Numbered from the stretch's first letter, positions 6,253-42,669 are shown. The stretch: DNA of 64,000 nucleotides from an uncultured Gemmatimonadales bacterium (GCA_963779755.1 CAVZZO010000001.1:160001-224000), one strand, 5' to 3'. The notes: generated by a model from the sequence alone, not told the origin. A program made the numbers and translations.

Positions 6253-6549
6253 ATGAGAGCCTATTCTATTTCCGAGGCCAAGAACCGCCTGAGTGCCCTG
6301 CTCGCCCGGGTGCGCAAGGGCAACCGTATCGTCATTACCGACCGGGGGGTTCCGGTCGCGGCTCTCGTTCCCCTGGACGACAGCGGCGCCCCGGCTGCTA
6401 CCGAAGGCAGGCTGCTCCGGCTGGAGCGGGCGGGTCTCATCGCCCGGCGCGCGCGGCCGCTCGCTCCCGAGCTCTATCAGACCCCGCCGCCCCGGGCCCA
6501 AGGTCTCGCGAGCGCGGCATTGCTGGCCGAGCGATTGGACGGCCGGTGA
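6253..6549 (+). CDS. Type II antitoxin, Phd/YefM family
   Basis: SISEAKNRLSALL.RV..G..IVITDRG.PVA.LVP. Confidence 0.92.
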   Translation: MRAYSISEAKNRLSALLARVRKGNRIVITDRGVPVAALVPLDDSGAPAATEGRLLRLERAGLIARRARPLAPELYQTPPPRAQGLASAALLAERLDGR

Positions 6550-8871: not shown

Positions 8872-9021
8872 GACGAATATTCAACAATAACGCAGACCCG
8901 AGAATTCGCTCCGTCTTGCTCAGGCCAGGTGAGCCGCTCCCGAGCGGGTGGCCCGCCGACATTCATGCCTGCTCGGGGTACAAACCGGGCGGGAACAGGG
9001 TCGCCCTCGGCGACCGGGCGT

Positions 9022-11123: not shown

Positions 11124-11211
11124 GGTGGCCTCCAGGGTGCGGGGGTTCGAGATCTGGTCCGGAGGGAGCAATCTTGCCCCTCCCGGTATCTTGGAATACG
11201 TTGGCAAGAAG

Positions 11212-11250
11212 CGGTCAACTACCGGTCAGCGGCCGGTCAACGGCGGCTAA
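11212..11250. promoter_or_regulatory. SARP-type heptamer direct repeats with 11-bp period
   Basis: CGGTCAA(11212), CGGTCAG(11223), CGGTCAA(11234), CGGCTAA(11244). Confidence 0.7.
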
Positions 11251-11323
11251 CCCGTTGGCTGACCCCGCATCGTGGCTCGATCCGCCGCGACTGCGGCTGG
11301 ACCGTGCTCCGGTATCCCTTGAT

Positions 11324-13693: not shown

Positions 13694-13717
13694 AGCGATT
13701 CCGCGCGATGCCCCCGC

Positions 13718-16606: not shown

Positions 16607-16734
16607 CAGGTCAGGACTCCGATGCGAGGCCGGCAAAGGCCCCGTCGTTGCGGAGGTCGTAATCGGAGTTGAGCGGCACCACTGCCTCCGTCCTCGCACT
16701 GCGGGTCGAGCTCGATTCGGGGCCAGGAAAGCCA

Positions 16735-16750
16735 AGCAATAGCCGTGCCC
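16735..16750 (-). promoter_or_regulatory. Sigma54 (-24/-12) promoter
   Basis: Reverse complement GGGCACG-GCTA-TTGCT, about 130 nt before the GGDEF-EAL start, with an AT-rich tract upstream. Confidence 0.7.
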
Positions 16751-16879
16751 CCTGACCTGATGCTATATATCTTGATACAACAAGGACTTACACGAAGACA
16801 TCAAGGCAGGACGGACCCGGTGTAGAGGGATTTTGCGGTGACGCAGAAATGCCGTGGTGGGAGACGCTCCCGACAGCGC

Positions 16880-18313: not shown

Positions 18314-18326
18314 GAAGCGAGGTGGG

Positions 18327-18683
18327 TCAGGCGGGCAGCAGGCGGTCCAGGTGGTCCAGCAGCTCGGCAAACCGGAACGGCTTCGCCAGGAAGTCGGTCA
18401 CACCCGCCTCGAGGCAGTGGCGCCGGTCCTGTTCCGAGTCGCGGGCGGTGAGCATGAGAATGGGAAGCTCCCGCCCCTGCCGGCGCAGCTCCCGGGCCAG
18501 GTCCACACCGCTCATCCCGGGCAGCATGAAGTCGAGCAGGATCACATCCCACTGCTCCTGCAGCGCCCGGCTGAGAGCGAGGGCCCCGTCACTCTCGACC
18601 ACAACCCGGTGCCCCTCCTCGCCCAGTCCCTGGGCGAGAAAGCCGGACACCTTGGGGTCGTCTTCGACGAGCAATATTCGCAT
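18327..18683 (-). CDS. Single-domain response regulator (OmpR-like receiver, no output domain)
   Basis: ILLVEDD, LLDFMLP, LTA and KPF motifs; stop after about 118 aa. Confidence 0.9.
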   Translation of the reverse strand: MRILLVEDDPKVSGFLAQGLGEEGHRVVVESDGALALSRALQEQWDVILLDFMLPGMSGVDLARELRRQGRELPILMLTARDSEQDRRHCLEAGVTDFLAKPFRFAELLDHLDRLLPA

Positions 18684-26242: not shown

Positions 26243-26614
26243 ATGCCGAAGGTGATCCTCGTCATAGAAGACGATCCCGCGCAGCGGCGATTGATCGAGG
26301 GAATGCTGGGCGCCTCGGGCTACCGTACCGCGAGTGCTTCCGACGGCGACAGCGGGCTGGCCGCGGCCCGCGCCCGCACTCCAGATTTGATCATCCTCGA
26401 TGTCATGATGCCCGGGCGTAATGGATACCAGACGTGCCGCGCCCTCCGGGCCGAGGAAGCCACCCGGCAGGTCCCGATCCTGATCCTGACCGCCAAGGAA
26501 CAGGAGACCGACCGGTTCTGGGCCGCCCAGGTGGGCTCGTCCGGCTTCCTGCGGAAGCCGGTCGAACCAGCCGAATTGCTGGATGCCGTCGCCGGGCTGC
26601 TGGGCCGGCCGTGA
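26243..26614 (+). CDS. Single-domain response regulator (PilH/CheY-like)
   Basis: EDD, LDVMMP..NGY, LTAK.QETDRFW and KP motifs. Confidence 0.92.
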   Translation: MPKVILVIEDDPAQRRLIEGMLGASGYRTASASDGDSGLAAARARTPDLIILDVMMPGRNGYQTCRALRAEEATRQVPILILTAKEQETDRFWAAQVGSSGFLRKPVEPAELLDAVAGLLGRP

Positions 26615-29600
26615 GCTTTCTCGACGTCATTCTGGTCGCCGCGGCCGCTATCGCGGCGATCGCCATCATCGCCGTACTTACCTGGCTGCTCTACACCAGC
26701 TATCTCAACCGGCTGGAGCACCGGCTCGCGGTCCGCAAGGGATTCTACCGGGACACCGTGGCCGGCATGGCCGCGCGCGACCGCGCGCTGCTGGAACCCG
26801 TGCTGCACCAGATTTCCACCTATCGGGATTTCGAAGCGCTGGAGGCGGTGCTGGAGGAGCAGGCGCGGGGCGCCACCGAACGGCCCGCCTGGCTGCTCGA
26901 CACCTACGACCGGCTCGGGCTGGTGGACAAGTACATCCGCCAGGTGCGGGAAGGCCGGCGCTGGCGCGAACGGGCGTTCGCGGCGGAGTTGCTGGGCCGG
27001 GTCGGGAATGCCAAGGCGGTGGGACCGCTGCTGGAGACGGTCCAGGCAACCCGGGCGGAGGACGCCGATGTGCGGGAGATCGCCTTGCGCGCCCTGGCCC
27101 GCATCGCCGATCCCCGCGCGGTGCCGCCGCTGGCTGAGGCGCTCCGGCGCGCGGAGGTCTGGCTCGCCCCGCGGATCGCGGATATCCTGGCCCGCCACGG
27201 CGAAGTCGTGGTAGACCCGATGATCGCCTTCCTGGAGGAACGAAGCCAGCATCCCGCCCGTGCCTGGGCGGCGAATATCCTGGGCGAAGTCAGGGCGGTG
27301 CGCGCCTTTCCCACCCTGGTCCGTGCGCTGGACGACCTGGACGACGAGGTGCGGGCCAAGTCCGCCACCGCCCTCGGCAAGCTGCACGATCAGCGTGCGA
27401 TCACCTATCTGCTCGATCACCTGCTGACCGACCCCGCGCCCTTTGTCCGGGCGCGCATCGCCAGCGCGCTGGGCCGGTTCAACGACCCCGAGGTCATCGA
27501 TACCCTGGTGCGCGCCCTGGGCGATCCCGCCTGGTGGGTCCGCATGCGCAGCGTCGAAGCCCTGGAGCAGATCGGGGCGGTCGCCGAGGCGCCGCTCATG
27601 CTGGCCCTGGATGACACCGATCCGGAAATCCGCATCCGTGCCGCCGTGGCGCTGGAACGTCTGGGCGTCCCCAACCGGCTGATCGGGCAGATCGAAAGTG
27701 GCACCGCCTCGCCCGAGGTCGGCGAAATCCTTACCAAATTCGGCCTGGCGGGCGCGCGGGAGCTGCTGGCCGAGCAGCTGCAGCACCCCTCTCCGCTGGT
27801 GCGGCGGGCGGTCATTGAAGCCATTCAGCGCGCCGGACGCCGCGACCTCGCTCCGGAGCTCACCCAGGTCGCGCGGCACGACGACGATCCCTCCCTCCGT
27901 GCCTTTGCCTTCGAGACCTTGCGGCACCTGGGGGCCAGCGAAGCCGTGCCCACGGCGCTGGAAGGGCTGGGTGATCCTCATCGGGACGTCCGCACGGCGG
28001 CGATGCGGCTGGTCGGCGATCTGGGCGAGGCGGAGGTGGCCGACATGATCCGCCCTCGCACCACCGACAAGGAACCGGTGGTGCGCGCCGCGGCCGCCCG
28101 CGCACTGGGGCAGCTGCATGCGCGCGATGCCCAGCCCGAGTTGGCGCGGCTGCTGAAAGATCCGGTCCCCGAAGTACGCGCCGCCGCCACCGACGGCGTG
28201 GCGGACAGCAACGGCACCTGGGGCGTCCCCGAGCTGGGGCACCTGCTGGGCGATGCCGATCCCGCCGTGCGAAGCGGCGCGGCCCGGGCGCTCGGCCGGG
28301 TGGGGGACGCTTCCGTGCTGCCCGCCCTGCTGCGCAGCTTTCAGACCGGAACACCCGAGCTGCGCGAAGTCATCGCCGATGCCGTCGCCCGCCTCGACCC
28401 GGCCGCACTGCCGGGCCTGCTCGACGTGCTCATCGCCGCCGGCGACCGGGACTCCCGTCTGGGCGTGGTACGGATTCTCACCGGTATCGACACCCCCGCC
28501 AGCCTCGACCTGCTGGAGGTCGTCTGGCACGACCACAGCCCGGAGGTACGGGCGCTGACGGTGGATGCCCTTGCCCGGCTGGGGAGCGATCGCGCCGCCG
28601 GTCTTCTGGGCCAGGGGCTGCAGGATCCCGATGCCACGGTACGGGCCCGCACGGCCGACGCCCTGGCCCGGCTGGGCCGCGCCGAGTTCGGGCCTGCCCT
28701 GCGTTCCCTGCTGGCCGACGACCCCGCCCCACGCGTGCGGGAGCGGGCCGCCCTGGCGGTGGGCGCCCTGCAGGTCCCCGGCGGCGAGGCAGCCCTGCTC
28801 CACGCCTGCCGGGCGGACGAGCCGCTCTCGGTGCGGGCCGCCGCGGCGCTGGCCGTCGGCGCCTACGATCAGGAGAGCATCGTGGCCCAGGTGGTCGGCA
28901 TGGTAGACGAGGAGCCGGTACGGGAACACCTGCGCGACTGCCTTCGCGATGATCCGGGTTACCGGGTCATTCGCGAGCGGCTGCGCGAGGCGCGGCAGGT
29001 CGAGCTGCGCGCGCTGGGCAGCCTCAACCGCGACCAGATGGAAGCCTCCCTGGTGGAAGGCATGCGCTCGGTGCTCGAGGCCGGTGAGCGGGTGCGCCTG
29101 ATCGGGGCGCTCCACGCCTTCCAGGGCGAGCGCAGCCGGCGCGCCCTGCTGTATTCCGTTCGGAACGACCCCGACCCCGAGGTGCGCGCCGCCGCGCTGA
29201 GCGCGGTGGGCGGGATGCTCGAGGCAGGAGAGCTGGTGCTCACGGCGCGGCGCGCCGTGTCCGACCCCCACCCCGCCGTGCGCCGGGTGGCGGTCACCCT
29301 CTTCTCCCGGGTGCCGCCCGAGGAGGCGCTGCCGGTCCTGATCCGCGTGGTGCGCCCCGGCGACGAGGACCCCGCGCTGCTGCAGACCATCGCCGCGCAT
29401 GCCGAGCAGGCGTTCGATACCTTCGTGGACCTGACCCTGGGATTGGCCCAGTCCGGCCGGGAGGGACTCGTCGTCACCCGCGTGGCGCGCTATATCCATC
29501 ATGCCGGGCTGCGCAATCTGCTGCCGCCGCTGGCCCGGAGTGCGGTGCCGGAAGTGCGGGAAGGACTGGCGCGCCTCTGGTGGCAGCGGCCGGAGCTGGC

Positions 29601-30090
29601 GCAACCCGACGCATTGCGCAACCTGGTCGCCGATCCGGTCACTGCCGTCCGGCGCGAGGCCGTCCGGGCGCTGGCCCTCAATCCCGGCGCCGCCGATCTG
29701 GCGGCCCTGGCAGAGGACCCGGTGGCGGAGATCCGCACCGAGCTGGCGCGGGTGCTCCCGGCGGCATCCGCGGCGCTGGCAGAACTGCGGCGGGATCCGG
29801 TGGAGGCGGTACGCGCCGCCGCCTGGTACAGCGAATTGGGCCGGGGCGGGAGCACGGAGGTCCCGGCGGACGTGTCGCGGGAGGCCCTGGTGGCCGAGGT
29901 CCGCGCCATCGCCGTGCTGGCCGATCTGGTGCGCATCGCCCGGTCGGATCCTGACACGGACCGGCGGCGCGCCGCCGGAGTCGGGCTGGCCCTGCTCCAG
30001 GATCCGGCCGCGCGGCAGGTAGCCTCCGAAGACCCGGCGCCCACGGTGCGGGATGCCGTGCGGCGGTGGCTCGAGGCGGGCCCGGCCTGA
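26611..30090 (+). CDS. Membrane-anchored large HEAT/PBS-lyase repeat protein
   Basis: N-terminal TM helix and more than 20 L.D....VR..A..ALG repeats. GTGA overlap with the upstream gene. Confidence 0.92.
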   Translation: MSFLDVILVAAAAIAAIAIIAVLTWLLYTSYLNRLEHRLAVRKGFYRDTVAGMAARDRALLEPVLHQISTYRDFEALEAVLEEQARGATERPAWLLDTYDRLGLVDKYIRQVREGRRWRERAFAAELLGRVGNAKAVGPLLETVQATRAEDADVREIALRALARIADPRAVPPLAEALRRAEVWLAPRIADILARHGEVVVDPMIAFLEERSQHPARAWAANILGEVRAVRAFPTLVRALDDLDDEVRAKSATALGKLHDQRAITYLLDHLLTDPAPFVRARIASALGRFNDPEVIDTLVRALGDPAWWVRMRSVEALEQIGAVAEAPLMLALDDTDPEIRIRAAVALERLGVPNRLIGQIESGTASPEVGEILTKFGLAGARELLAEQLQHPSPLVRRAVIEAIQRAGRRDLAPELTQVARHDDDPSLRAFAFETLRHLGASEAVPTALEGLGDPHRDVRTAAMRLVGDLGEAEVADMIRPRTTDKEPVVRAAAARALGQLHARDAQPELARLLKDPVPEVRAAATDGVADSNGTWGVPELGHLLGDADPAVRSGAARALGRVGDASVLPALLRSFQTGTPELREVIADAVARLDPAALPGLLDVLIAAGDRDSRLGVVRILTGIDTPASLDLLEVVWHDHSPEVRALTVDALARLGSDRAAGLLGQGLQDPDATVRARTADALARLGRAEFGPALRSLLADDPAPRVRERAALAVGALQVPGGEAALLHACRADEPLSVRAAAALAVGAYDQESIVAQVVGMVDEEPVREHLRDCLRDDPGYRVIRERLREARQVELRALGSLNRDQMEASLVEGMRSVLEAGERVRLIGALHAFQGERSRRALLYSVRNDPDPEVRAAALSAVGGMLEAGELVLTARRAVSDPHPAVRRVAVTLFSRVPPEEALPVLIRVVRPGDEDPALLQTIAAHAEQAFDTFVDLTLGLAQSGREGLVVTRVARYIHHAGLRNLLPPLARSAVPEVREGLARLWWQRPELAQPDALRNLVADPVTAVRREAVRALALNPGAADLAALAEDPVAEIRTELARVLPAASAALAELRRDPVEAVRAAAWYSELGRGGSTEVPADVSREALVAEVRAIAVLADLVRIARSDPDTDRRRAAGVGLALLQDPAARQVASEDPAPTVRDAVRRWLEAGPA

Positions 30091-32700: not shown

Positions 32701-34209
32701 TCAGTCGGGGCCGGTCGGGGCCGGGCGAGCGGGAGGTTCCGGGGTGCCGATATCCAGCTCCTCCCGGGTGGCGAGGCGGGGCAGCGTCCGGTCCGGCTCG
32801 TGGGCCGGCGAAAATGCGACCACCGCCTCCGCCGGCAGCAGGTGGCGGATGCCATTGGCGTAATACTCCAGCAGAGGTCGCTGCTCCGGCAGCACCAGCA
32901 GGGTCTCCCCCTCGGCCACGACCAGCCGGCGGAGATGGAACATCCGCCAGGCCCGGTCCCAGACGTCCGCGATGGGAATGTCTCCCCGAACCAGCCGCGC
33001 GTTGAGTGAGCGCAGGGTATCGCGCAGGTCGTCCATCCGCTCCAGCAGCCGGGAACGGCTGACGGCGCTGGAGCCGAACGAGAGTAGCGCCGCGGCGGCC
33101 AGCGGCACCGGGGTTACCGGCACGACCGCGCCGATTTCCCGCATCAGCAGTTCGCCCAGCCGTTGCACCCAGGGCAACCGCTCGGCGCGGGGCAGCGCCA
33201 GCACTCCGGCCGGTTGCCGTCCCACCCAGTCCCGGGCGGAGACGGGTGTTCCAAAAGTCACGGCCGCGCGCCCGTAGCGGCGCAGCCGCCCGGTGAGCAG
33301 GCGCGCGAGATTGGTCAGGAGATAGGCCGTGACCGTGGCAAGCTGCCGCGCCCGGCCCGGGAGACGCCCCCCCACGATCCGTTCCCGGATAAGGACACGG
33401 TCCTCCAGCACGCGGTCGTAGTTGATGCCGACGGGAATGAACCAGAGCCCGCGCTGAAAGGCCGGGTCGCGCAGACTGCCCAGCAGATAGTCCAGCAGCC
33501 CCAGCTTGGGCGGCCGCAGCGCGCCGTCGCGCGTGAGGCCGCCCTCCAGGAAGATCCCCTGTGTCACCCCGTTGCGGGTGATGAGCTGGACATACCGCTC
33601 CAGCACCGTGTGGTAGAGCGGTTCGCGGTAGCGCCGCCGCACGAAATAGCTGCCGAAGCTCTTGAAGACATACTCCAGCGGCCACACCCGCGCCCATTCT
33701 CCCACCGCATAGCTGATGCTCACCACCCGTGCCAGCACATAGGCCACGACTACGTAGTCGGCATTACTGCGGTGGTTCATGACGTAGACCACCACGTCCT
33801 CGCGGGGGATCCGCTCCAGCGCCTCGCGGTCTTCGTAGGCAATGGACGAGCGATACAGCAGGTTCAGGACCAGCCGGCTCAGGTTATAGCCCAGCCGGTA
33901 GTAGGAGAGCACGTTGAAGAAGGGGACGATCTCGTCGATATAGCGCACCACCCGGCGGCGAACCGCTTCCGGGGAGGTGCCGCTGGCCCGGGCACGTGCC
34001 GCGATGGCCTCGAGCACGGCGGAGTCGGCCAGCAGCTCGGCCTGGATATGCCGCCGGGCCACCAGCTTGTAGCGGTCCAGCCGGGCCCGGAACTGGCGCA
34101 CCGCGCGGCGGCCCATGCGCCGCAGCCTCCGCCGGAGCAGGCCGAGCGCCAGCAGACCCAGCACCAGGACCGCGCCGCCGGCCGCCAGCCAGCGCCAGGA
34201 ACCGGTCAC
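32701..34209 (-). CDS. Glycerol-3-phosphate acyltransferase (PlsB-like)
   Basis: NHRSNAD (HX4D), G.YF.RR, FLEGG.TRDG and IPV.I.YD motifs. Confidence 0.9.
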   Translation of the reverse strand: MTGSWRWLAAGGAVLVLGLLALGLLRRRLRRMGRRAVRQFRARLDRYKLVARRHIQAELLADSAVLEAIAARARASGTSPEAVRRRVVRYIDEIVPFFNVLSYYRLGYNLSRLVLNLLYRSSIAYEDREALERIPREDVVVYVMNHRSNADYVVVAYVLARVVSISYAVGEWARVWPLEYVFKSFGSYFVRRRYREPLYHTVLERYVQLITRNGVTQGIFLEGGLTRDGALRPPKLGLLDYLLGSLRDPAFQRGLWFIPVGINYDRVLEDRVLIRERIVGGRLPGRARQLATVTAYLLTNLARLLTGRLRRYGRAAVTFGTPVSARDWVGRQPAGVLALPRAERLPWVQRLGELLMREIGAVVPVTPVPLAAAALLSFGSSAVSRSRLLERMDDLRDTLRSLNARLVRGDIPIADVWDRAWRMFHLRRLVVAEGETLLVLPEQRPLLEYYANGIRHLLPAEAVVAFSPAHEPDRTLPRLATREELDIGTPEPPARPAPTGPD

Positions 34210-35243
34210 CCCATGGCGCCCGCGGACGAGTTGAGCGCATTGCGCTTGGCTTCCTGGTAGGCCATGCCGCGCAGCCGCGCGATGCGCACCCGGGTCGGCG
34301 GGTGGGAGGCGAGAATATCGCCCAACCGGCCCTCACGGTCGGCGATGTGCCGGTCGCCCGGGTCCACGATGCAGAGGTGGGCCGCGCCCCGCTTGATTGT
34401 CCGGGTGGGATCCGCCGCCGCCTCGAGCTTGTCCAGCGCCGATGCCAGCGCCATCGGGTTCCGGGTAAACTGCGCGCCGGTGGCATCGGCCAGAAACTCG
34501 CGCTTGCGGCTCACCGCCATGGCCAGGATGCGGGAGATGAGCGGCGCCAGGATCAGCGTGACCAGCCAGAGCGCCAGCACCAGGAGGCCCAGGGGGTTAT
34601 TGCCGCCGCGCCGCCCGCCGGAGCTGCGGCCGCCACTCACCCGGACACCCCCGCGCAACACCCGGCCCAGCCCGTCGTGCATCAGCACGATGGCGCCCAC
34701 CATCGCCGCCAGCAGCGTCATCAGGCGGATGTCCAGATTGCCGATGTGCGCCATCTCATGCGCGATGACGCCCTGCAGCTCATCTCGATTGAGCGTGCGC
34801 AGCAACCCCTCGGTCACCGCGATATTCGCGTGCCCCGCGTCGAGGCCGGTAGCGAAGGCGTTGGGATCGGGATCGGGCACGATCCAGATGCGCGGCCGCG
34901 GCGTGCCCGAGGCGATGGCCATCTCCTCCACTACGTTCACCAGCTGTTGCTGCTCCGGGGTATCGGGAGTGATCAGCTCCCAGGCACCGGTGGACCAGAG
35001 TACCCGGCTGGCGCCCCGCTGCCAGGAATAGAGGCAGACCACGGCGGCCGCCGCGCTCAGTACCAGGCCGATGAAGGGAACGACATGGTGGTACGCACCG
35101 GGGGGCGCGTCGCGAGTCAGCAGATAGGCGGCGAGATCGCCACCAAATCCGACCCAGGCAAAAAAGAGGATAAAGCCGGCGACCAGCCAGACCGACCGGC
35201 GGCGATTGGACTCCTGTTGCGCGAAGAGATTGGGCGCCGTCAC
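34206..35243 (-). CDS. htpX: M48 zinc metalloprotease HtpX
   Basis: PNAFATG, HEMAH, SRKREFLAD and SHPP motifs. Confidence 0.93.
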   Translation of the reverse strand: MTAPNLFAQQESNRRRSVWLVAGFILFFAWVGFGGDLAAYLLTRDAPPGAYHHVVPFIGLVLSAAAAVVCLYSWQRGASRVLWSTGAWELITPDTPEQQQLVNVVEEMAIASGTPRPRIWIVPDPDPNAFATGLDAGHANIAVTEGLLRTLNRDELQGVIAHEMAHIGNLDIRLMTLLAAMVGAIVLMHDGLGRVLRGGVRVSGGRSSGGRRGGNNPLGLLVLALWLVTLILAPLISRILAMAVSRKREFLADATGAQFTRNPMALASALDKLEAAADPTRTIKRGAAHLCIVDPGDRHIADREGRLGDILASHPPTRVRIARLRGMAYQEAKRNALNSSAGAMG

Positions 35244-35812
35244 GCCTGCGGCTTGTTCATGGAGAGATCGACCTGCGGCACCGCCCGCTCGGCCGGCTCG
35301 TCGATTTCCCACAGCTCCGCCGGCGTCGCCCGGGCCATGCCCGCCACCAGATTGGTGGGGAACTGCATCTGCCGGGTGTTGTACTCGGTGGCGACGTCGT
35401 TGTAGAGCTGGCGCGCAAACCCCACCTTGTTCTCCGTGCTGGTGAGCTCTTCCTGCAGCTGCGCGATGTTCCCGGTGGCCTTGAGATCGGGGTAATTCTC
35501 TACCAGGGCAAAGAGCCGCCCCAGCGCCTGGGTCAGCTCACCCTCGGCCCGCGCCGTTTCCTTCACGCCGCTCGCCGCTACCGCCCGGTTCCGGGCGGCG
35601 ATAACCGCTTCCATCGTGTTGCGCTCGAACTGCATGGCGCCCTTCACCGTATTCACCAGGTTGGGAATCAGATCGTGCCGCCGCTTGAGCTGCACGTCGA
35701 TCTGCTTCCAGGCGTTCAGCACCCGGTTCTTCAGCGCGACGAGGACATTGTAGGTACGGATCAGCCAGACCACCAGCAGCGCGAAGGCGGCGAGGAGAAT
35801 GAAGCCGAGCAT
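35240..35812 (-). CDS. lemA: LemA family protein
   Basis: W.QIDVQLKRRHDLIPNLV, ENYPDLKA and YN...FP motifs. Confidence 0.96.
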   Translation of the reverse strand: MLGFILLAAFALLVVWLIRTYNVLVALKNRVLNAWKQIDVQLKRRHDLIPNLVNTVKGAMQFERNTMEAVIAARNRAVAASGVKETARAEGELTQALGRLFALVENYPDLKATGNIAQLQEELTSTENKVGFARQLYNDVATEYNTRQMQFPTNLVAGMARATPAELWEIDEPAERAVPQVDLSMNKPQA

Positions 35813-35878
35813 GTCGATCTCCCGGACTGAGGAAAGGAGTACTGTACCGCAACGGCGCACGCCGGGGGGCGTGGCCGG

Positions 35879-36529
35879 TCAGGCGTCCTCTCCTTCCACC
35901 GCGCGCGCGATCGCGTCCCGAATGGCCTCGGCCAGCGCCTGCTCGCCGGCGGGGCGGTGGAAGAGCGGATGGCGCTCGTCGATCAGCAGCTCGAGTCCGG
36001 CGTCCAGCGGCAGCCGCCGGCAGGTGCTGGGCCGGGCAGGGCTCCCGGTCGCTTCGGCCGGCCGGGCCCAGCCGGCCATCACCCGCCCCACCTTGCCGCG
36101 GGGCACCTCCTGTGGCGGCAGCAGCAGACGGTCCGGCGGGGGGAGGCCTGCGCCCAGCGCGGCAGCCACCCGGCGCTCGACCACATCGCCGCCCTGGTCC
36201 TGGAGGTCGCGGGTAATGGCGCCCAGCGTGGCTCCCTCCATTTGGCGGAGCTTGATCGCCAGCACCTGGAGCAGGTGGCGGTAGGTGTAAATCGCGGCGG
36301 TACCGCGGCCCTCGGGCGGGCTCACCAGCCCCTGGGCTACGTAGAACCGGATGGTTCGTTCGGTGGGCCGGGCACGCGCGGCGGCATTGAGAGGAAACAC
36401 CCCGGAGGCACCGAGGATAGCCCCCGCGAGCGCACTCAGATCGCGCAGGCTCCAGGGCGCCAGCGCCCGGTATTCGCGCAGCACCGTAATGGGATCGGGC
36501 GATGCCGGATTGGGGCGGGCGGCGGTCAT
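35879..36529 (-). CDS. MerR-family HTH regulator
   Basis: RTIRFYVAQGLV.PP.G....A.Y..RHL. Confidence 0.88.
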   Translation of the reverse strand: MTAARPNPASPDPITVLREYRALAPWSLRDLSALAGAILGASGVFPLNAAARARPTERTIRFYVAQGLVSPPEGRGTAAIYTYRHLLQVLAIKLRQMEGATLGAITRDLQDQGGDVVERRVAAALGAGLPPPDRLLLPPQEVPRGKVGRVMAGWARPAEATGSPARPSTCRRLPLDAGLELLIDERHPLFHRPAGEQALAEAIRDAIARAVEGEDA

Positions 36530-36933
36530 GCCGACCCGTTGCTCTGCCGCGGCAGAGACTCGGTCTGCGCCGACAGTACCGTGGCGATCAGCGATTCCAG
36601 TTCCTTGAGGGCAAACGGTTTGGCCAGCATGGGCCGGCGGCGCAGCTCCTCCGGCCATTCATCGCGGCAGTGTTCCGGGTCGCCGCTCATGAATACCACC
36701 CGGCCCCGCAGCCGGGGCCAGCGCCGCACCAGGGCAAGGTACAAGGTATCGCCCGTCATCTGGGGCATGCGGACGTCCAGCAGCACCAGATCCACGTCCG
36801 TCTCCGACAGCAGCTCGTAGGCGGAATCGGCGCCCGAGGCCAGCAGCACTTCGTACCCGCACCACCGGAGCGCCCGGTCCAGGGCGTGCCGGATGCTGGG
36901 CTCGTCATCGATCACCAGCAGCCGCGTGCTCAC
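36526..36933 (-). CDS. Single-domain response regulator
   Basis: IDDE, LDVRMP, MSG and KPF motifs. Confidence 0.92.
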   Translation of the reverse strand: MSTRLLVIDDEPSIRHALDRALRWCGYEVLLASGADSAYELLSETDVDLVLLDVRMPQMTGDTLYLALVRRWPRLRGRVVFMSGDPEHCRDEWPEELRRRPMLAKPFALKELESLIATVLSAQTESLPRQSNGSA

Positions 36934-37721
36934 GATACCGCCTCCCGGGCCTGCTCGAAATAGCGCGACGTCACGATGGCCAGCGCATCCTCGGCCGACA
37001 GGGAGAGGCGCAACTCCCCGGCGGTCAGCCCGAAGACTTCCTTGAGATGCATCTGCAGGCTCCTCGCCTTGCTGTAACCCAGCTTCATCGCCACGTCCTC
37101 TACCGTATAGCCCGGATCCAGCAGCAGCCGGTGCGCGTACAACAGCCGCGCCAGCATCAGTACCACCTTGGGCGACGGCAACCCGCTGCGGGCAAACCAG
37201 CGCTCGCAGGTGCGCCGCTGCAGGCTGGCCCGGTCCGCCAGCGCCGACACGGTGGCGGCATCGGTGGGCGTGTGCAGCATTGCCTCCAGTGCCCAGCGCA
37301 GCTGCGGCGGTAGCCCCTTCAGCAGCCCGACGATGGCCTGAATCACCTTGCGGGAAGCGGTCTGCTCCAGCTCCTCCCGCAGTGCCACCCGCAGGGCCGG
37401 CGGGGAGTCGTCGAACCGGGTGAACACCGCCCGGCGGATCCCGATCCGCCCCAACTCCAGCAGCACCCCCGCCGTATCGGGCGACAGGGTGGTGTAGACC
37501 AGCAGCGGCAGCGAGGGGAAGAGAACCCGAAGCCGTTCGATCTCATGCGTACGGGGCTGCCCGCTGAGCAGCGGGTCGGCCACGACCATCTCGATCGGCT
37601 GGCGCCGGATGATCTCGATCACCTCGGCCCAGGCGGGCACCGTGACGAACGCATAGCGATCGGGCTCCGCAGAGCGCAACCGCTGGACACGATCGTCGGG
37701 AACCGCGGCCAGGAGCAGCAT
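36930..37721 (-). CDS. AraC-family regulator with receiver-like N-terminal domain
   Basis: V..LA......RT..R.F...G...P...L...RL..A..LL.....TVE.VA..LGY double HTH. Confidence 0.88.
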   Translation of the reverse strand: MLLLAAVPDDRVQRLRSAEPDRYAFVTVPAWAEVIEIIRRQPIEMVVADPLLSGQPRTHEIERLRVLFPSLPLLVYTTLSPDTAGVLLELGRIGIRRAVFTRFDDSPPALRVALREELEQTASRKVIQAIVGLLKGLPPQLRWALEAMLHTPTDAATVSALADRASLQRRTCERWFARSGLPSPKVVLMLARLLYAHRLLLDPGYTVEDVAMKLGYSKARSLQMHLKEVFGLTAGELRLSLSAEDALAIVTSRYFEQAREAVS

Positions 37722-37723
37722 CG

Positions 37724-37794
37724 TGTCGCAAAAACGTCCCTTGCTGTCGCGAAACAGGCCTAACAGGAAGTCGGCGTCGCCGCAATTTTGCGGC
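37724..37794. promoter_or_regulatory. Divergent control region with 21-bp-spaced direct repeats and an inverted repeat
   Basis: TGTCGCAAAAAC(37724) and TGTCGCGAAAC(37745); GCCGCAA-TT-TTGCGGC at 37779-37794. Confidence 0.6.
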
Positions 37795-37832
37795 ACCCCT
37801 GACGCCCTCCCTGCCGTTAAAGGAGTCGAGTC

Positions 37833-37973
37833 ATGCTTCTCAGCAAGCGCCTGGTCCTCGCCCTGCTCGTCGTCGCGATGTTCGGCGTGTCCGCCTGCTC
37901 CGACGCTACCGGCCCTCGTCCCGATAGCCAGCCGTGCGAGCAGCAGGGCACGGGTGGCAGAACCTGCCAGTGA
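37833..37973 (+). CDS. 46-aa lipopeptide MLLSKRLVLALLVVAMFGVSACSDATGPRPDSQPCEQQGTGGRTCQ (absent from the ORF track)
   Basis: AAGGAG RBS at 37820; basic n-region, hydrophobic h-region, lipobox VSAC and a C-terminal Cys pair. Confidence 0.85.
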   Translation: MLLSKRLVLALLVVAMFGVSACSDATGPRPDSQPCEQQGTGGRTCQ

Positions 37974-37974
37974 T

Positions 37975-39240
37975 CTAGACGCCTACCTGGGCAAGTTCCC
38001 GGATCCCCTCGGAAATCTGCACGACGGCCGGAGCCTGGACCGCTTCGGCCGTCTCGTTTCTGGTATGCCAGCTGTCGGGGCAGGGTTCGAGCCCGCGCAG
38101 CACCCGGTCGATCCGGAAATACCACTCGTTGAGGCCGTGCGTCTCGGCCAGGGTCAGCGCCTCGCGCATGACGGAGCGGGCGCGCTGTTCGCGCCCGAAG
38201 CGGGCCAGGCCCACCCCCATCTTGTAACGGTAGTCGATGGCCATGCTGGGCGGCATGCGATTTTCCACCAGGCGCGCCTCCTGCCGGAACCGCTCGTACG
38301 CCACCCGGTTCCCCACCGCCGACTCCAGATCCATCAGCTCAAGATAGACGTTGGCCCGGATAAGGAAGCCGGCATCACCCCGCAGCACCATTTCGAAGCA
38401 GTGCCGCGCCGCATCATAGGCCCCGACGGCCCGCAACGCGATGCCCAGGTCGCCCAGGACACGGCTGCGCTGGATGGGATCGCGCAGGCGCTTGAGGGCT
38501 TCGTACTTGGCGACCAGATCGCCGAAGATATCCCCCTGCACCGCCAGCACCACCGAGAGGTCGAACCAGGCACGGCCCTGCACCTCGAGCAGCGGCTTGC
38601 TGTCGCAGTCCTGGATGATCCGCTTCAGCGCCGCCTGGGCCGACGACAGGTTCCCCCGGCCCCGGAGCACGTTGGCCTGGCCGATCCGGGCCAGCATCAC
38701 CTCGTTCAGTTCGCCGCAGCGCTGCCCGGCCTGCTCCGCCATCCCGTAGGCTCGTCCGGCGGCATCCCAATGGGCCAGCGCCCGATGTATCCGCCCGATG
38801 AACAGGGCCAGGGTGGGCAGCTCACCCACGGGAATCCCGGACCCATACGTATGCGCGGCCAGCCCCAGCATGTCCAGCGCCTCTTCCAGGCGGCCCTCAT
38901 GCTCGAGGTAGTAGGCGAAGGCCAGGGCCGCCATCCGCATGATGGTGGCGCGGTGCCGTTCTTCGATGCAGACCGATTCGACGATGCCGAGCAGGTGGGC
39001 CGCTTCCGGCTGATCGGAGGGAAGCTCGCGGAGAAAGCGCTGGGTGCTCTGCAGCTGCCAGTTGAAGCCTTCGACCTCATCCGGCTCGCTGCTCAGCCGC
39101 AGCCGGCGGTCGAACAGGCGGGCGACAAGATAGGCTCCCAGCGCGGTGCGGGACCCCAGCTCATTGCCCTGTTCGCGCTCGGCGCGGGCGCGATCCAGAA
39201 AAGAGGAGAAGCCGACAAGATCCGCCGAAGGCGGTCTCAC
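37975..39240 (-). CDS. Cytoplasmic TPR-repeat protein; start uncertain (frame open to 39408)
   Basis: Repeated helical motifs (G.L..A, RGRGNL..A, LGDLG.AL...G.Y.AA). No signal peptide seen. Confidence 0.85.
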   Translation of the reverse strand: MRPPSADLVGFSSFLDRARAEREQGNELGSRTALGAYLVARLFDRRLRLSSEPDEVEGFNWQLQSTQRFLRELPSDQPEAAHLLGIVESVCIEERHRATIMRMAALAFAYYLEHEGRLEEALDMLGLAAHTYGSGIPVGELPTLALFIGRIHRALAHWDAAGRAYGMAEQAGQRCGELNEVMLARIGQANVLRGRGNLSSAQAALKRIIQDCDSKPLLEVQGRAWFDLSVVLAVQGDIFGDLVAKYEALKRLRDPIQRSRVLGDLGIALRAVGAYDAARHCFEMVLRGDAGFLIRANVYLELMDLESAVGNRVAYERFRQEARLVENRMPPSMAIDYRYKMGVGLARFGREQRARSVMREALTLAETHGLNEWYFRIDRVLRGLEPCPDSWHTRNETAEAVQAPAVVQISEGIRELAQVGV

Positions 39241-39578
39241 CGCAAAGAGATCGTCGGGACAGAACACCCGGGCACTCCCGGAGTAGGCGTGGCTCAGCAC
39301 AGTCTGGCTAGTATGCCCTAACCCGCAGTGCGCGGCAAGCCCCGTTGGGGGAAGGGAGCCCGCCAGCCATCGCAACCGCTCTCTACGGTTGGCCCCTGCA
39401 AAACGCACGAAGTATGCCTCCTGCGACAGGGCTCCGCCATTAACAGCCAGCTGCTTGCCCCGGCGCGAGATAAGCCGGGAATCCCTGCGGCGGCACCCTG
39501 GCCCTGCTCGCGTTTCAGCGCCGCCTCCTGCAACAACCGGATGACGGACCGTCGCTCGCCGCCAGCGACATTGTCCCC

Positions 39579-40001
39579 ATGCGCCGTGGCACTACGCTGA
39601 CCGAGCTTCTGCTGGCCCTCGTCGTCCTGGCGGTTACGGCGGCCCTGGTCGTGCCGAAAGTTGCACCCTGGGTCGACCGTGCCGCGGTCGAACGCAGCGC
39701 CAGAGCCATCGCCAGCGCCCAGACCAGAGCTCGGCTGGAGGCCGCCGCGCGCGGAACCGTTCTCATCATGACGATCGGCACCGACAGTCTCCGACTCGAG
39801 GACCGGCTGGGCGCCAGGCTGTGGCAGGCGCCCGGTCCGGGGGCGGCGAACGTCGCGCTGGCACCGGCCGGTCACCAGGTCACCTACGCTCCCTCGGGAC
39901 TGGCCCTCGGTTTTTCGAATGTTACCCTGCGACTCTCCCGCGGATCGGCTCAGCGCCGGGTGGTCATCTCCCGGATGGGAAGAGTCCGGGTGCTGCCGTG
40001 A
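39579..40001 (+). CDS. Prepilin-type (GspH/FimT-like) pseudopilin
   Basis: MRRG|TTLTELLLALVVL type IV prepilin cleavage motif; C-terminal ISRMGRVR. Confidence 0.88.
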   Translation: MRRGTTLTELLLALVVLAVTAALVVPKVAPWVDRAAVERSARAIASAQTRARLEAAARGTVLIMTIGTDSLRLEDRLGARLWQAPGPGAANVALAPAGHQVTYAPSGLALGFSNVTLRLSRGSAQRRVVISRMGRVRVLP

Positions 40002-40021
40002 GCCGGCCGCCCTGTCCCCGG

Positions 40022-40402
40022 TTATCGCACCGATTCAAGCCCATAGCGGCGGATCTTCGCCAGCAGAGTAGAGCGGGCGACCCCCAGCTGGAGTGCCGCC
40101 TGCCGGCGATTGCCCCCCGTGTACCGCAGCATGTCAGCGATGTGCCGGCGTTCCGCCTCTTCCAGCGACAGAGGCGCGGCGGGAAGGCGCGGCGCGAGTG
40201 CGGCTCGCAGTGCGGCAAGATCGACGTCGGGCAGGCCCGGGTCCAGGAGCACGAGGCGGAATGCGCCGCCGGCCACCGCCTGAGCGGCTTCGGCGCCGTC
40301 GTGGACGAGCATCGTCCGGTATCCGGCAGCCTCGAACATGGCTCGCAGTTGTTCCTGCCGGAGGGGGTCGCGCTCCAGCACCAGCACGGTCGCCTCGCTC
40401 AT
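40022..40402 (-). CDS. Receiver-like domain fused directly to a Fis-type HTH
   Basis: LVLLD..LP followed by SLEEAERRHI...L..TGGNRRQAA..LG.ARSTL..K. Confidence 0.88.
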   Translation of the reverse strand: MSEATVLVLERDPLRQEQLRAMFEAAGYRTMLVHDGAEAAQAVAGGAFRLVLLDPGLPDVDLAALRAALAPRLPAAPLSLEEAERRHIADMLRYTGGNRRQAALQLGVARSTLLAKIRRYGLESVR

Positions 40403-40463
40403 GGCACTTAGTATATCTTTGGGCGGGAGTCCCGCAACGCCGCCTCAGCCCACCGACACCGTC

Positions 40464-41441
40464 ATGGATATCATCGACCTCACCCGCCTCGAAGTCGGGC
40501 ACCGGCTGCAGGATCCGCTGCTGGTCCTGGAGATCGACCAGCGCGGTAGCGGGGAGGGCTCCTTTACCGTGCTCACCTTCGGCAACAGCACGGGGCGAAT
40601 CGCCAGCGCGCCCTTCTGGTTTGAAGAACAGCCGCGGGTCGCGGGCGTCGGCCGGGGCGATGTGGTCCAGGTCATCGGCGAGGTAACCACCTACCGCGAC
40701 CGGCGCCAGCTGAAAGTCACCTCGCTCCGCGTATTGCCGCGGGGCAACGTGGATTGGCGGTCCCTGCTCCCCTCGGTGGGCGATACCACCCGCTACTGGG
40801 AGGTGCTCGATCAGTGGCGCCGGGATATCGCCGGCGGCCGCCTGCGGGATACGCTCGCTCTCTTCTACGAGGACGACGACTTCCGCCGCCGGTACGGCGA
40901 ATGCCCCGCCAGCCTGAGCGGGCATCACGCCATGCTGGGCGGTCTGCTCAAGCACACCGCCGAGGTCGCCACCATCGGGCGGGCCATCGCCCGCACCATC
41001 CCGCGCGCCGATCCCGACCTGGTACTGGCCGGCGTGCTGCTGCACGATATCGGCAAGCTGGAATCCTACCGCTGGGAAGGGGTCTTCGAGATGACCGACC
41101 GCGGCGCCCTCTATGGCCACGTCGTGCTGGGCACCCTGATGCTCGAGCGCCGCATCCGGGACTGTCCCGCTCCCCCCTGTGAGCCCGCCGAACTCGATCT
41201 GCTGCACCACCTCATCCTGAGCCACCATGGGAAGCTGGAATTCGGGGCGCCGGTCTCCCCCATGACGCTCGAGGCGGAGATCCTCCATTTTGCCGACAAC
41301 GCCAGCGCCAAGACCACCAGCATGGCCGACGCCCTGGCCGACGGCGAGAATTTCACCGGCGACGGCCTGGTCAGCGCCCGGACCATCTGGCAGCTGGACC
41401 GCCGGAGAGCCTATCGCGGGACGAGCGACTGGGGCCGGTAG
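40464..41441 (+). CDS. yhaM: OB-fold + HD-domain 3'-5' exoribonuclease, YhaM family
   Basis: PAS..HHA..GGLL.HT, LLHDIGK, GH, HLILSHHG..EFG.PV.P...EA.ILH.AD. Confidence 0.88.
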   Translation: MDIIDLTRLEVGHRLQDPLLVLEIDQRGSGEGSFTVLTFGNSTGRIASAPFWFEEQPRVAGVGRGDVVQVIGEVTTYRDRRQLKVTSLRVLPRGNVDWRSLLPSVGDTTRYWEVLDQWRRDIAGGRLRDTLALFYEDDDFRRRYGECPASLSGHHAMLGGLLKHTAEVATIGRAIARTIPRADPDLVLAGVLLHDIGKLESYRWEGVFEMTDRGALYGHVVLGTLMLERRIRDCPAPPCEPAELDLLHHLILSHHGKLEFGAPVSPMTLEAEILHFADNASAKTTSMADALADGENFTGDGLVSARTIWQLDRRRAYRGTSDWGR

Positions 41442-41450
41442 CGAATGCGC

Positions 41451-41531
41451 AAATGTGGATTCACATTCTCCACACGGGTGTGGACAGGGGGCCAAGCTGG
41501 CTTTCCGATCAGCACTTAGCGATCCACATTT
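41451..41531. promoter_or_regulatory. Cluster of four DnaA-box-like motifs
   Basis: TGTGGATTC(41454), TTCTCCACA(41466), TGTGGACAG(41479), CGATCCACA(41520). The outer pair forms a 10-bp inverted repeat. Confidence 0.5.
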
Positions 41532-41572
41532 CTTCCACTTCAAAGCAGCGTAACCCGAATAAATACAGGCAC

Positions 41573-41600
41573 TTGCGCGTTTCCAGCGAGGCCCTATCTT
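41573..41600 (+). promoter_or_regulatory. Sigma70-like promoter for the candidate ncRNA
   Basis: TTGCGC-16 bp-TATCTT with an AT-rich upstream tract. Confidence 0.55.
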
Positions 41601-41606
41601 AGGCTC

Positions 41607-42030
41607 ACGCCGGACGAGATCGCGAGAAATGCCTCCGCGCATGATCGAATGAGCTTCTGGCGGGTCTGGGCGGGATATCGGAGGAGATTGCCGACGCAAC
41701 CAAGGGCTCAGGCAATCGGTGATCCCGGTGGCCACTCCAGTCCAGACCGATAAGGCCAGTCGCGTGCCTTATCCACCCCGATTCAGCGCCTCGGGGTGCA
41801 GTGCGGAAAGTCGGTCCGCGACCCGATTGATCCGCAGCGCCCGCAGTGATGAACCAGGTGGGATGGCCATCCGGCCTGGGGATCGAAGCCGAGGCCTCTG
41901 CAGACCTTACCGCGAGCGTATCAGTTCACGGCGGCAGCAGAGAGAAGAACGGCAGCAAACGCTCCGACCTCGGGTAATCACTGTGCGGGACGGCCGCCTA
42001 GTCTGAGGGCTAGGCGGCCGTTCCATTTCC
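41607..42030 (+). ncRNA. Candidate large structured non-coding RNA of unknown class
   Basis: At least 10 nested or abutting helices, no credible ORF, bounded by a promoter and a terminator. Confidence 0.65.
41987..42030 (+). terminator. Strong hairpin terminator (probably bidirectional)
   Basis: GGGACGGCCGCCTAG-8 nt loop-CTAGGCGGCCGTTCC followed by ATTT. Confidence 0.75.
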
Positions 42031-42057
42031 CCCTCCCCAGGCCTCGCCGCCGCGAGG

Positions 42058-42669
42058 CTATGGCCTTCCGGAATCCTCGCGGGTGGACCTGCGCTTCGGA
42101 GAGTCGAGACCTCCCGCCAGCGGATTGGGCCCGGCGCCGAGCGGCCGCAGGCGGATGTTGATCGCCCGTAATACGTCGTTGGCCGAGGCATCGTACCGGT
42201 GAATCGCGTCCGCCGTCTTGAGCGCGGTGGACACTCCGTAGCCCCGAAGCTCCTCCGACTTGTCCCGATCGGTCCAGGCCGTAAACTTCTGCTGGCACGC
42301 CTTGAGGGAAGTTTCCAGCGCATCCATGTGCCGCCGCAGCATCAGGCGCTGCGGTTCCGGCACGCTGTCCATCAGCGGGGAGCGCAGGAACGATTCCCGC
42401 GTGGAGGGGAGCGTGCGGGAAGCGGCTCCGCACCGCTCCTGCAGTATCCGCGCGCGGGAGGACAGCACGTAGGATGAACTCTGGGAAAGATCGCGCTGCA
42501 GCCGGGCGATCGAGGCGGTGACACCGGCCAGGCTGTCGCGCAGGATCAGGTAGCCGTCCCGGACCGCCGCATGCGGCGGATCGAGCGGCTTCTCCGGCAG
42601 CGCAATGGCCTGGGCGGACAGTGGAACGGGAAGGGCCAGCAGACCCAGCAACAGCAGACGGCGGATCAC
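42058..42669 (-). CDS. Hypothetical secreted helical protein
   Basis: Signal peptide MIRRLLLLGLLALPVPLSA-Q; coupled to the upstream gene. Confidence 0.8.
   Translation of the reverse strand: MIRRLLLLGLLALPVPLSAQAIALPEKPLDPPHAAVRDGYLILRDSLAGVTASIARLQRDLSQSSSYVLSSRARILQERCGAASRTLPSTRESFLRSPLMDSVPEPQRLMLRRHMDALETSLKACQQKFTAWTDRDKSEELRGYGVSTALKTADAIHRYDASANDVLRAINIRLRPLGAGPNPLAGGLDSPKRRSTREDSGRP

Follow-up and report, generated by a model that had tools for sequence, protein, structure and literature searches.

Introduction

In the RRNPP systems of Firmicutes and their phages, such as Rap-Phr, NprR-NprX, PlcR-PapR, PrgX and AimR-AimP, the gene of a small exported propeptide lies beside the gene of a cytoplasmic protein of the tetratricopeptide repeat (TPR) type. 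The signals of these systems usually diversify into pherotypes, and the Rap proteins act on Spo0F and ComA. Here we describe a locus of related layout in a 64,000-nt stretch of DNA (68% G+C) from an uncultured Gemmatimonadales bacterium (GCA_963779755.1, CAVZZO010000001.1:160001-224000); this whole stretch is referred to as the window. In a short gap between the genes of an all-TPR protein and of an AraC-type regulator lies a 46-codon open reading frame (ORF) for a predicted lipoprotein precursor. Our reading, to which we give a probability of about 40%, is that these genes belong to a conserved, self-contained regulatory module of the Gemmatimonadales whose signal element is this very small lipopeptide.

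RRNPP peptide quorum sensing is placed in the Firmicutes in the excerpt of PMC10075063 used here, and excerpts of PMC5199041 and PMC9765709 describe multi-copy cores in propeptides of the Phr, NprX, AimP and PlcR types. The locus resembles these systems in that a gene for a small, apparently exported propeptide lies beside a cytoplasmic TPR-type gene. Further, as in the excerpted descriptions of Phr, NprX and AimP, a core of 7-8 residues is found at or near the C-terminus and is multiplied in some lineages. A likeness to the Rap systems is that receiver-domain proteins, two of them, are encoded adjacent to the TPR gene.

There are also differences. There is no sequence homology to RRNPP systems, and the TPR protein of the module is without a helix-turn-helix (HTH). 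The precursor has a lipobox, not a signal peptidase I site, and the host is a diderm, while the excerpts deal with Firmicutes. In addition, the core is near-invariant, and the two genes are convergent with their 3' ends nearly touching. Judged from sequence, the module is closest in logic to Rap-Phr without being a homologue of the RRNPP systems.

The enterococcal pheromones cCF10 and cAD1 also come from lipoprotein precursors, which yield a short peptide that is sensed by a cytoplasmic RRNPP-type receptor. These pheromones are pieces of the signal peptide, and the mature lipoprotein has no part in signalling. In the Gemmatimonadales module, in contrast, it is the C-terminal part of the mature peptide that contains the conserved element, and the signal peptide varies more than any other region of the precursor (mean pairwise distance 0.59 vs 0.43).

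Activators of the AraC/XylS family use direct repeats two helical turns apart, as in araI1-I2 of araBAD and for XylS and RhaS. The module has an HTH_18 output domain and, as a candidate binding site, repeats of ~17-19 bp with cores 21 bp apart, 65-110 bp before the start of the gene that they would control. Unlike in these activators, the regulatory domain has a receiver fold and is not a sugar-binding or cupin domain, and the repeats overlap the start region of the regulator itself.

Two more groups of systems are of interest. RcsF and NlpE are small outer-envelope lipoproteins that feed two-component systems; they are folded, longer than 100 aa and not encoded beside a TPR protein. The module resembles them in that a lipoprotein may be the sensing or signal element for response regulators in a diderm, without re-import, and differs in that it contains no kinase. 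The class II chaperones of type III secretion are proteins of ~160 aa with three TPRs, encoded in a type III secretion locus. The pairs SicA-InvF and IpgC-MxiE join such a TPR chaperone to an AraC/XylS activator, according to excerpts of PMC10761746, PMC10977090 and bioRxiv 10.1101/2022.04.20.488988. Going by these excerpts, the module likewise couples a TPR protein, an AraC-family regulator and an exported protein. However, it is without a secretion system, its TPR protein is about three times larger with TPR-like helices throughout, and no homology was found.

A small lipoprotein gene conserved in the Gemmatimonadales

The small ORF (37833-37973, plus strand) encodes a precursor of 46 aa, MLLSKRLVLALLVVAMFGVSACSDATGPRPDSQPCEQQGTGGRTCQ, and lies in the 255 bp that separate the TPR gene from the AraC gene. 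An initial annotation, made from the window alone, had proposed that it has a strong ribosome-binding site and a lipoprotein signal, and both are present. A Shine-Dalgarno sequence AAGGAG (37820-37825) stands 7 nt before the ATG. Residues 1-21 (37833-37895) form a signal peptide with K5 and R6 in the n-region and a hydrophobic core; here and below, signal peptides and lipoboxes are assigned by sequence pattern. The lipobox is V-S-A-C, with Cys22 encoded at 37896-37898, and the motif D-A-T-G-P comes next.

The core, E36-Q-Q-G-T-G-G42 (37938-37958), is bracketed by C35 and C45. The two cysteines flank EQQGTGGRT, so that the mature part contains the Cys-bracketed span of 11 residues, both Cys included, that had been annotated. 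The stop codon TGA (37971-37973) is separated by 1 nt from the stop codon TAG of the TPR gene (37975-37977, minus strand), and the close convergence of the two genes had also been described correctly.

An open frame of this size is uninformative by itself, because the DNA has 68% G+C and as many as 86 ORFs of at least 30 aa overlap positions 34000-42500. What lifts the small ORF above chance is its conservation across related loci. Among 8000 candidates scored, 433 relatives of the TPR protein were found at E<=0.001, with a typical length of 428-435 aa, and an alignment of 22 relatives was used to fetch 55 genomic loci (L001-L055) from a species-representative genome collection. The loci are all from one order, the Gemmatimonadales, and were retrieved with two peptide patterns; more distant or rearranged relatives would be missed. 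The named relatives of the window genes are all from Gemmatimonadota or Gemmatimonadales. Peptide homologues were located by tblastn with the window peptide, which gave a match in most loci, and then by explicit ORF extraction, which gave a complete ORF in 54 of the 55.

On the opposite strand, directly past the TPR stop, a homologue of the peptide gene is present in 54 of the 54 related loci that have the DNA. The 55th locus, L012, is truncated; it ends 141 nt after the TPR gene, and the peptide fragment DATGPSDSPQVSFEEGVG is still visible. The initial annotation had proposed to look in the flanks of TPR homologues for small lipobox ORFs that contain a QG motif, and such an ORF is found in every examinable locus. 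The peptide set used below consists of these 54 loci and the window. All 55 sequences are distinct, and an SD-like (Shine-Dalgarno-like) 4-mer is found upstream in 51 of them.

The pattern of substitutions is that of a coding sequence. Over 41 well-occupied codon columns, mean pairwise differences at codon positions 1, 2 and 3 are 0.40, 0.31 and 0.54. Every synonymous codon occurs at the invariant Cys, Asp, Pro and Gly, which for Pro and Gly means all four each. Changes in length are whole codons, including insertions of 8-codon repeat units. From these features, the small ORF is almost certainly a real gene.

A profile built from 41 members gives one match per locus, always at the peptide site, among 12,943 six-frame segments (687 kb), and in these segments there is no other match even at E<=10. 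Thirteen of the matched loci lay outside the training set, while the diverged member in L027 is missed and L012 is truncated. In a large protein collection the same profile gives 760 cluster representatives at E<=0.01. The best 120 of these 760 are all unnamed or called "hypothetical protein" and are without a Pfam domain; by pattern, a lipobox is found in 120 of the 120 and one core in 117.

The two genes are tightly packed in the whole set. Among 51 measured members, 14 overlap at their stops (gap -4) and the others are 1-66 nt apart, with the exception of L054, where the value of -117 is not meaningful as the TPR gene is split in tblastn. In no locus do the stop-to-stop distances leave room for two separate terminators. 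In the window a candidate terminator-like hairpin (38023-38053, plus strand), with a 12-bp stem and a T-run, is located 50 nt past the small-ORF stop, within the 3' end of the TPR coding sequence; the hairpin scan finds this one against 0.3 expected from shuffles. If it ends the peptide transcript, the convergent mRNAs would overlap by ~80 nt, which might permit antisense effects.

Anatomy of the peptide family

The precursors are 43-70 aa long with a signal peptide of the Sec type, and the mature, tethered part is predicted to have ~25 residues. All are built on a common plan. An n-region M-S-R-x-K/R and a hydrophobic stretch lead to a lipobox (S/T/A)-(A/T/S)-(A/G)-C, and past the lipobox follow (T-R)-x-D-x-T-G-P, a short linker rich in Pro, Ser and Gln, an F or L (or C), and the core E-x-Q-G-(S/A/T/G)-(N/G)-(N/G/T) at or near the C-terminus. 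In the numbering of the window peptide the invariant residues are C22, D24, P28, E36 and G39. The n-region charge, h-region and lipobox agree with the bacterial lipoprotein pattern, with Ala at position -1 in 96% of the members. Most members stop at the end of the core or 2 residues past it, and the endings among the 120 homologues listed include ...QGANN (40), ...NNGK, ...NNHH and ...NNNK.

Three styles of peptide can be distinguished in the set of 55: 24 are linear with a single core, 12 have two or three cores, and in 19 the core is bracketed by Cys. The cores may be directly tandem, as in L008 (SESQGSNN-SESQGSNN-LESQGSNN), or split by an 8-residue spacer, as in L035. On the TPR tree, a quick IQ-TREE run, the tandem-core state changes 3 times, and all 3 changes are forced by well-supported branches.

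The window and its closest relatives share the form C-E-x-Q-G-(S/T)-G-G-R-x-C. The disulfide loop had been proposed as the ligand, and as a conserved element it does not hold for the family: the Cys pair is found in the 19 bracketed members only. Read across the peptide set, the Cys loop is a clade-specific form of a general heptapeptide, and the Q-G-T-G of the window is a local form of Q-G-S-N.

A diverged member is found in L027 (7329-7532, minus strand). It has a run of 11 Thr and more Thr-rich sequence between the lipobox and a Cys-bracketed core G-E-M-Q-G-W-S-K-S.

A receiver-AraC regulator and its candidate operator

The gene that is divergent from the peptide gene (36930-37721, minus strand; 263 aa, ATG at 37721) encodes a response regulator with an atypical receiver and an AraC/XylS output domain. 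HTH_18 is matched with 53.1 bits (cut-off 33.6) at residues 186-263 of the long AraC ORF, and AdpA and VirS are matched in the PDB. When the 263-aa protein is modelled (predicted local distance difference test, pLDDT, 90.8), five strand-helix units are followed by a seven-helix C-terminal domain. The N-terminal half matches the fold of the receivers HupR, Spo0F and CheY4 with target TM-scores of 0.74-0.79, and the overall matches of the full-length model are FixJ and PorX.

D49 and T77 of the receiver part never vary. In place of the acidic pair after strand 1 stands A-V-P, and there is no invariant Lys. Because the receiver fold and D49/T77 are kept without the acidic pair, we consider the "AraC" protein a response regulator with an atypical receiver, or a pseudo-receiver. 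The initial annotation had made AraC the output of the system. As far as the HTH_18 output domain is concerned this stands, but the protein is itself a response regulator, so that it may also take in signals and not only pass them on.

Two further regulator genes follow on the same strand. The first (36526-36933, minus strand) encodes a canonical single-domain receiver of 135 aa (Response_reg, 61 bits), in which the acidic pair, acceptor Asp, Ser/Thr and Lys appear canonical as read from the sequence. The second (35879-36529, minus strand) encodes a MerR-like regulator that matches no Pfam or NCBIfam family model and is not present in the two minimal copies of the module described below. In agreement with the coupling of AraC, receiver and MerR genes proposed earlier, the start of the receiver overlaps the AraC stop in GTGA (36930-36933), and the likely ATG of the MerR-like gene overlaps the receiver stop in ATGA (36526-36529).

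The AraC gene had been annotated as divergent from the peptide gene across about 110 bp of repeat-bearing DNA, and we find a spacer of 111 bp with two direct repeats. The repeats, a ~17-19-bp element and a candidate operator (37724-37763, minus strand), abut the AraC start. They contain TGTCGCAAAA (37724-37733) and TGTCGCGAAA (37745-37754), 21 bp apart. In the aligned spacers of the family the repeat consensus is TAGGGsCnnTTTTGCGACA, present twice.

The spacing is strictly kept. When up to one mismatch per core is allowed, the window (37725 and 37746, minus strand) and 50 of the 54 loci in which the region is present have two TTGCGAC cores at a distance of exactly 21 bp; in L024, L030, L038 and L046 recognisable, more diverged copies of the repeat are seen. 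Elsewhere in the 687 kb there are a dozen core pairs at 19-23 bp, none of them with two exact cores except in L032. A relaxed pattern of the extended operator gives mostly noise off the canonical site, again with L032 as the exception. From the peptide start to the equivalent of the AraC start the spacer measures 104-119 bp in nearly all loci; shorter values belong to loci where an upstream start codon was taken for the peptide.

The repeats abut or overlap the start of the regulator. In many loci the frame is open through them, with a likely TTG start in the proximal repeat, and in L003, L005 and L006 there are stops in that frame within the repeat DNA. Conservation extends to all three codon positions, and where the repeats are read they contain the rare codons TTG, CGA, CAA and ATA, at a genomic G+C of third codon positions of ~0.8. 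Because of these rare codons, and the stops in other loci, the constraint on the repeats acts on the nucleic acid. The AraC ORF of the window stays open for 25 more codons, through the repeats, as far as a GTG at 37796 with GGGAGGG upstream, a possible alternative start.

A -10-like block (37777-37796, minus strand), an uncertain promoter, is found ~25 nt from the repeats. Its consensus is CCAAtcTGG, in which A and T are kept at >=90% in the aligned spacers, and the window has CAAAAT.

The exceptional locus L032 carries more copies of the element. On the other strand, at 8362-8420, two full elements and one partial element lie between the AraC stop and an ORF of 122 aa (8523-8891) with a signal peptide and lipobox, which is followed by a receiver-HD (HD_5) gene. 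Relative to the 122-aa lipoprotein gene, these elements have the same orientation and a similar distance as relative to the small peptide gene. The extra copies are the best indication that genes read in the GTCGCAA direction are controlled by the repeats from an upstream position, and the 122-aa lipoprotein gene may be a second member of the regulon. On balance, we slightly favour the view that the repeats are the operator of the AraC-type regulator.

The TPR protein

The gene convergent with the peptide gene (37975-39267, minus strand) encodes a cytoplasmic all-TPR protein. The length of ~420 aa given earlier is close to the ~430 aa obtained from the GTG start at 39267-39265, which matches the relatives and has GGGAG 7 nt upstream. 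Neither a signal peptide nor a DNA-binding domain was found in the protein.

The longest ORF, of 477 aa, contains an HTH-looking stretch, and an N-terminal HTH was therefore considered. The relatives start ~48 residues later, and since these N-terminal residues are not common to the relatives the HTH was rejected. A search for longer, fused forms of the TPR protein found none, which is weak evidence.

Family databases have little to say about the protein. In Pfam there are only generic TPR matches below threshold (TPR_12 with 28 bits, cut-off 30.1), and in NCBIfam there is no match. The TPR profile against PDB sequences finds only OGT and designed TPRs, and in the ESM Atlas only Gemmatimonadota TPR clusters with generic names are found.

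The AlphaFold model (pLDDT 89.7) is all-helical, with 22 helices. When compared with the PDB by Foldseek, OGT, designed CTPRs and LGN come first (E 2e-6 to 1e-5). The pLS20 Rap protein is found at ranks 17-18, NprR at 28, RapF/J at 30 and RapH-Spo0F at 49; these have query TM-scores of 0.40-0.46, and the E-values of pLS20 Rap, NprR, RapF/J and RapH are 2e-5 to 1.5e-4. The proposal of an RRNPP-type receptor thus finds no backing in homology, with no RRNPP family match and a generic fold comparison.

A complex prediction of the TPR protein with peptide residues 17-46 gave a score of 0.01 against a mark of 0.32; run without controls, it counts neither way on binding. We think it unlikely that the TPR protein binds the peptide directly.

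In L054 (6001-7282) the TPR gene appears to be split, with an early apparent stop, and tblastn covers 6004-6426 in one piece. This may be a frameshift, a pseudogene or an assembly error. The peptide gene of this locus is intact and has three cores.

Gene neighbourhood and minimal copies of the module

In the window the MerR-like gene is followed by the genes of LemA (35240-35860, minus strand) and of an HtpX-like M48 protease (34206-35312, minus strand). Both are co-linear in most loci and lie outside the minimal module. On the other side, divergent from the TPR gene, is the gene of a GspH-like pseudopilin (39579-40001, plus strand), which is not in the minimal copies either; there are no other pilus or type II secretion genes near it. 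In the 55 loci the TPR gene is present in 55, AraC in 54, the single receiver in 51, MerR in 49, the GspH-like gene in 48, LemA in 47 and M48 in 45.

Two loci have different surroundings. L032 is flanked upstream by an asparaginyl/aspartyl-tRNA synthetase gene and downstream by lipoprotein, receiver-HD and Ser/Thr kinase-TPR genes. In L027 the upstream neighbour is a TonB-dependent receptor gene, and cold-shock and receiver genes follow on the downstream side. Despite these flanks, both keep the TPR gene, the peptide gene, the candidate operator and the AraC gene, and L027 also the single receiver. Both have long branches in the TPR tree. L032 and the canonical L035 come from the same metagenome bin, which suggests a duplicated module, although bins can be mixed. 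No secretion genes were seen in the window or in the loci examined. Taken together, the TPR protein, the peptide and the AraC-type regulator probably form a functional unit.

A model of the module and its alternatives

A signalling role of the lipopeptide is plausible from the sequences, and we rate the chance that the peptide acts as a signal as somewhat short of even. In the model that we propose, the AraC-type regulator would bind the repeats and control the peptide gene and probably itself. By analogy with AraC/XylS proteins, it would do so as a dimer on two direct repeats two helical turns apart. The precursor would be exported, lipidated and cleaved by signal peptidase II, as the lipobox suggests, to leave a tethered peptide of ~25 residues.

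The heptapeptide core would be the active epitope, either shown on the tether or cut off. Because the peptide is tiny, its linker is unstructured, and the core is C-terminal and has been multiplied repeatedly and independently, we infer that the heptapeptide is the functional unit and that its dose matters, in line with what PMC5199041 and PMC9765709 describe for propeptides of the Phr, NprX, AimP and PlcR types. The status of the peptide would then feed back on the two receiver proteins, and this could happen by two routes. By the first, the peptide would be released, enter the cytoplasm and bind to the TPR protein, and the latter would influence the receivers in the manner of a Rap protein. 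By the second, it would act in the periplasm on an unlinked kinase, and the TPR protein would be a cytoplasmic modulator.

The most specific form of the model is an autoinduction loop of RRNPP logic, independently evolved and the first outside the monoderm Firmicutes. The tethered precursor would free one to three heptapeptides, disulfide-closed in the clade of the window, and these would be imported and then bound by a non-homologous cytoplasmic TPR receptor. Like a Rap protein, the receptor would control the single-domain receiver and the receiver-AraC protein, and the latter would drive the peptide gene from the repeats spaced by 21 bp. We think it rather improbable that this loop is right in all its parts.

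A number of observations weigh against the signalling module. The core is near-invariant across the order, while the TPR proteins are only about 43-58% identical to that of the window. The co-evolution of peptide and TPR protein, suggested as a test in the initial annotation, gave no TPR-specific signal: in the 39 loci having all six genes, the partial (mirror-tree) correlation with the peptide distance is 0.23 for TPR, against 0.35 for MerR and 0.21 for the single receiver, and 0.17 for AraC, 0.12 for LemA and 0.06 for M48. The fold match of the modelled TPR protein is a shared fold class and no evidence of kinship with RRNPP receptors. Release and re-import would be demanding because of the lipid anchor and the two-membrane envelope, and the minimal module of L032 and L027 contains no peptidase, importer or kinase.

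Further, since the repeats overlap the regulator's own start, they could act on the expression of the regulator alone, and a sigma-70 consensus scan of the spacer recognised no promoter. Finally, all 55 loci are from a single order in which the block from the GspH-like gene to M48 is also syntenic. The adjacency of the genes is therefore partly a matter of inheritance.

Several of these points would fit a different role, in which the lipopeptide is a tethered periplasmic effector of the envelope, encoded by a target gene of the AraC-type regulator. Its E-x-Q-G-S-N-N epitope would bind or modulate a conserved partner in the envelope, and in this reading the TPR protein is an accessory cytoplasmic regulator that never meets the peptide. 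A near-invariant core suits a conserved partner better than a pherotype, and a strong lipobox with a conserved motif after the Cys suits a tethered product. The co-evolution that is not specific to TPR agrees with this, as does the same operator before the larger lipoprotein gene in L032, since it may mean that a set of envelope lipoproteins are targets of the regulator. It is harder to see why an envelope effector should have a mature part of ~25 aa without a foldable domain, and why its core copies should have been multiplied at least three times independently. In addition, three or four regulators go with the gene, and there is no envelope machinery in the minimal copies. We regard an envelope effector as possible, if doubtful.

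The synteny could also be all there is to explain, with a real lipoprotein gene that is functionally unrelated to the TPR protein and just sits between two co-oriented genes in a lineage whose gene order is stable. Such a passive arrangement is at odds with L027 and L032, which have lost all other neighbours and kept TPR, peptide, AraC and operator. It is also at odds with stop-to-stop distances of -4 to +66 nt and spacers of 104-119 bp at TPR identities of 39-58%. The co-linearity of the GspH-like-to-M48 block in most loci of one order, and the absence of a specific co-evolution signal, are what it has in its favour, and inherited gene order as the sole explanation seems improbable to us.

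An export-coupled partner switch would account for the presence of all three kinds of protein, TPR, AraC-family and small exported, in one module, and it would need no re-import. The TPR protein would hold the unexported precursor in the cytoplasm and, once export is efficient, the free TPR protein would co-activate or inhibit the AraC-type regulator. The pairs SicA/InvF and IpgC/MxiE, described in the excerpts as TPR chaperone and AraC/XylS activator, are a precedent. However, those chaperones have ~160 aa and three TPRs in a type III setting, whereas here the protein has 430 aa and no adjacent secretion system, and neither the PDB profile search nor Foldseek found homology. Precursors of Sec or lipoprotein type are not known to need such chaperones, and we consider a switch of this kind very improbable.

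That the small ORF is not a gene but a chance frame, conserved on account of a regulatory DNA or RNA element or of the TPR 3' end, can be dismissed for all practical purposes: open frames are frequent at 68% G+C, but the codon-position pattern, synonymous codon use, in-frame 8-codon changes and conserved start, Shine-Dalgarno sequence, lipobox and stop all contradict it.

Other features of the window

A 126-aa protein (40022-40402, minus strand) combines a Fis-type HTH with a truncated receiver, which covers only positions 1-56 of the Pfam profile. The longest ORFs of its gene and of a divergent YhaM-like HD/OB-fold gene (40338-41441, plus strand) have 65 nt in common.

A signalling cluster at 11009-18370 encodes a BTAD/Trans_reg_C-TPR regulator (894 aa), a HAMP-GAF-GGDEF-EAL protein (1005 aa) and a HAMP histidine kinase (496 aa). 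Of these, the kinase might serve the orphan receivers as a partner, although it is unlinked to them. At 26434-30090 (plus strand) there is a 1218-aa protein that consists almost entirely of HEAT repeats (HEAT_2, 335 bits, 10 stretches), and downstream of it are a family-2 glycosyltransferase gene and a receiver-HisKA gene.

Significance of the module

Neither the peptide nor the TPR protein has a family match in Pfam or NCBIfam. A literature search with core motif strings gave only unrelated work among its matches, and one on peptide quorum sensing in Gemmatimonadetes gave nothing relevant, by title and abstract, among the matches listed. A new small-protein family, and a regulator module built on familiar logic, are well supported by the conservation that we describe.

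The Gemmatimonadales are widespread soil bacteria, and their regulation is almost without experimental study. The lipopeptide module is a concrete candidate, outside the Firmicutes, for peptide signals that are sensed by cytoplasmic TPR proteins. It offers a peptide core that can be synthesised, a defined candidate operator and three small, expressible proteins. Even if the signalling idea fails, what has been found is a new small-protein family with 760 cluster representatives and no Pfam or NCBIfam model, whose genes are so small that annotation easily overlooks them. A new subfamily of receiver-AraC regulators, with a likely binding site, is defined as well. If the signalling idea is true, a loop of RRNPP logic would be shared by a whole order of abundant soil bacteria.

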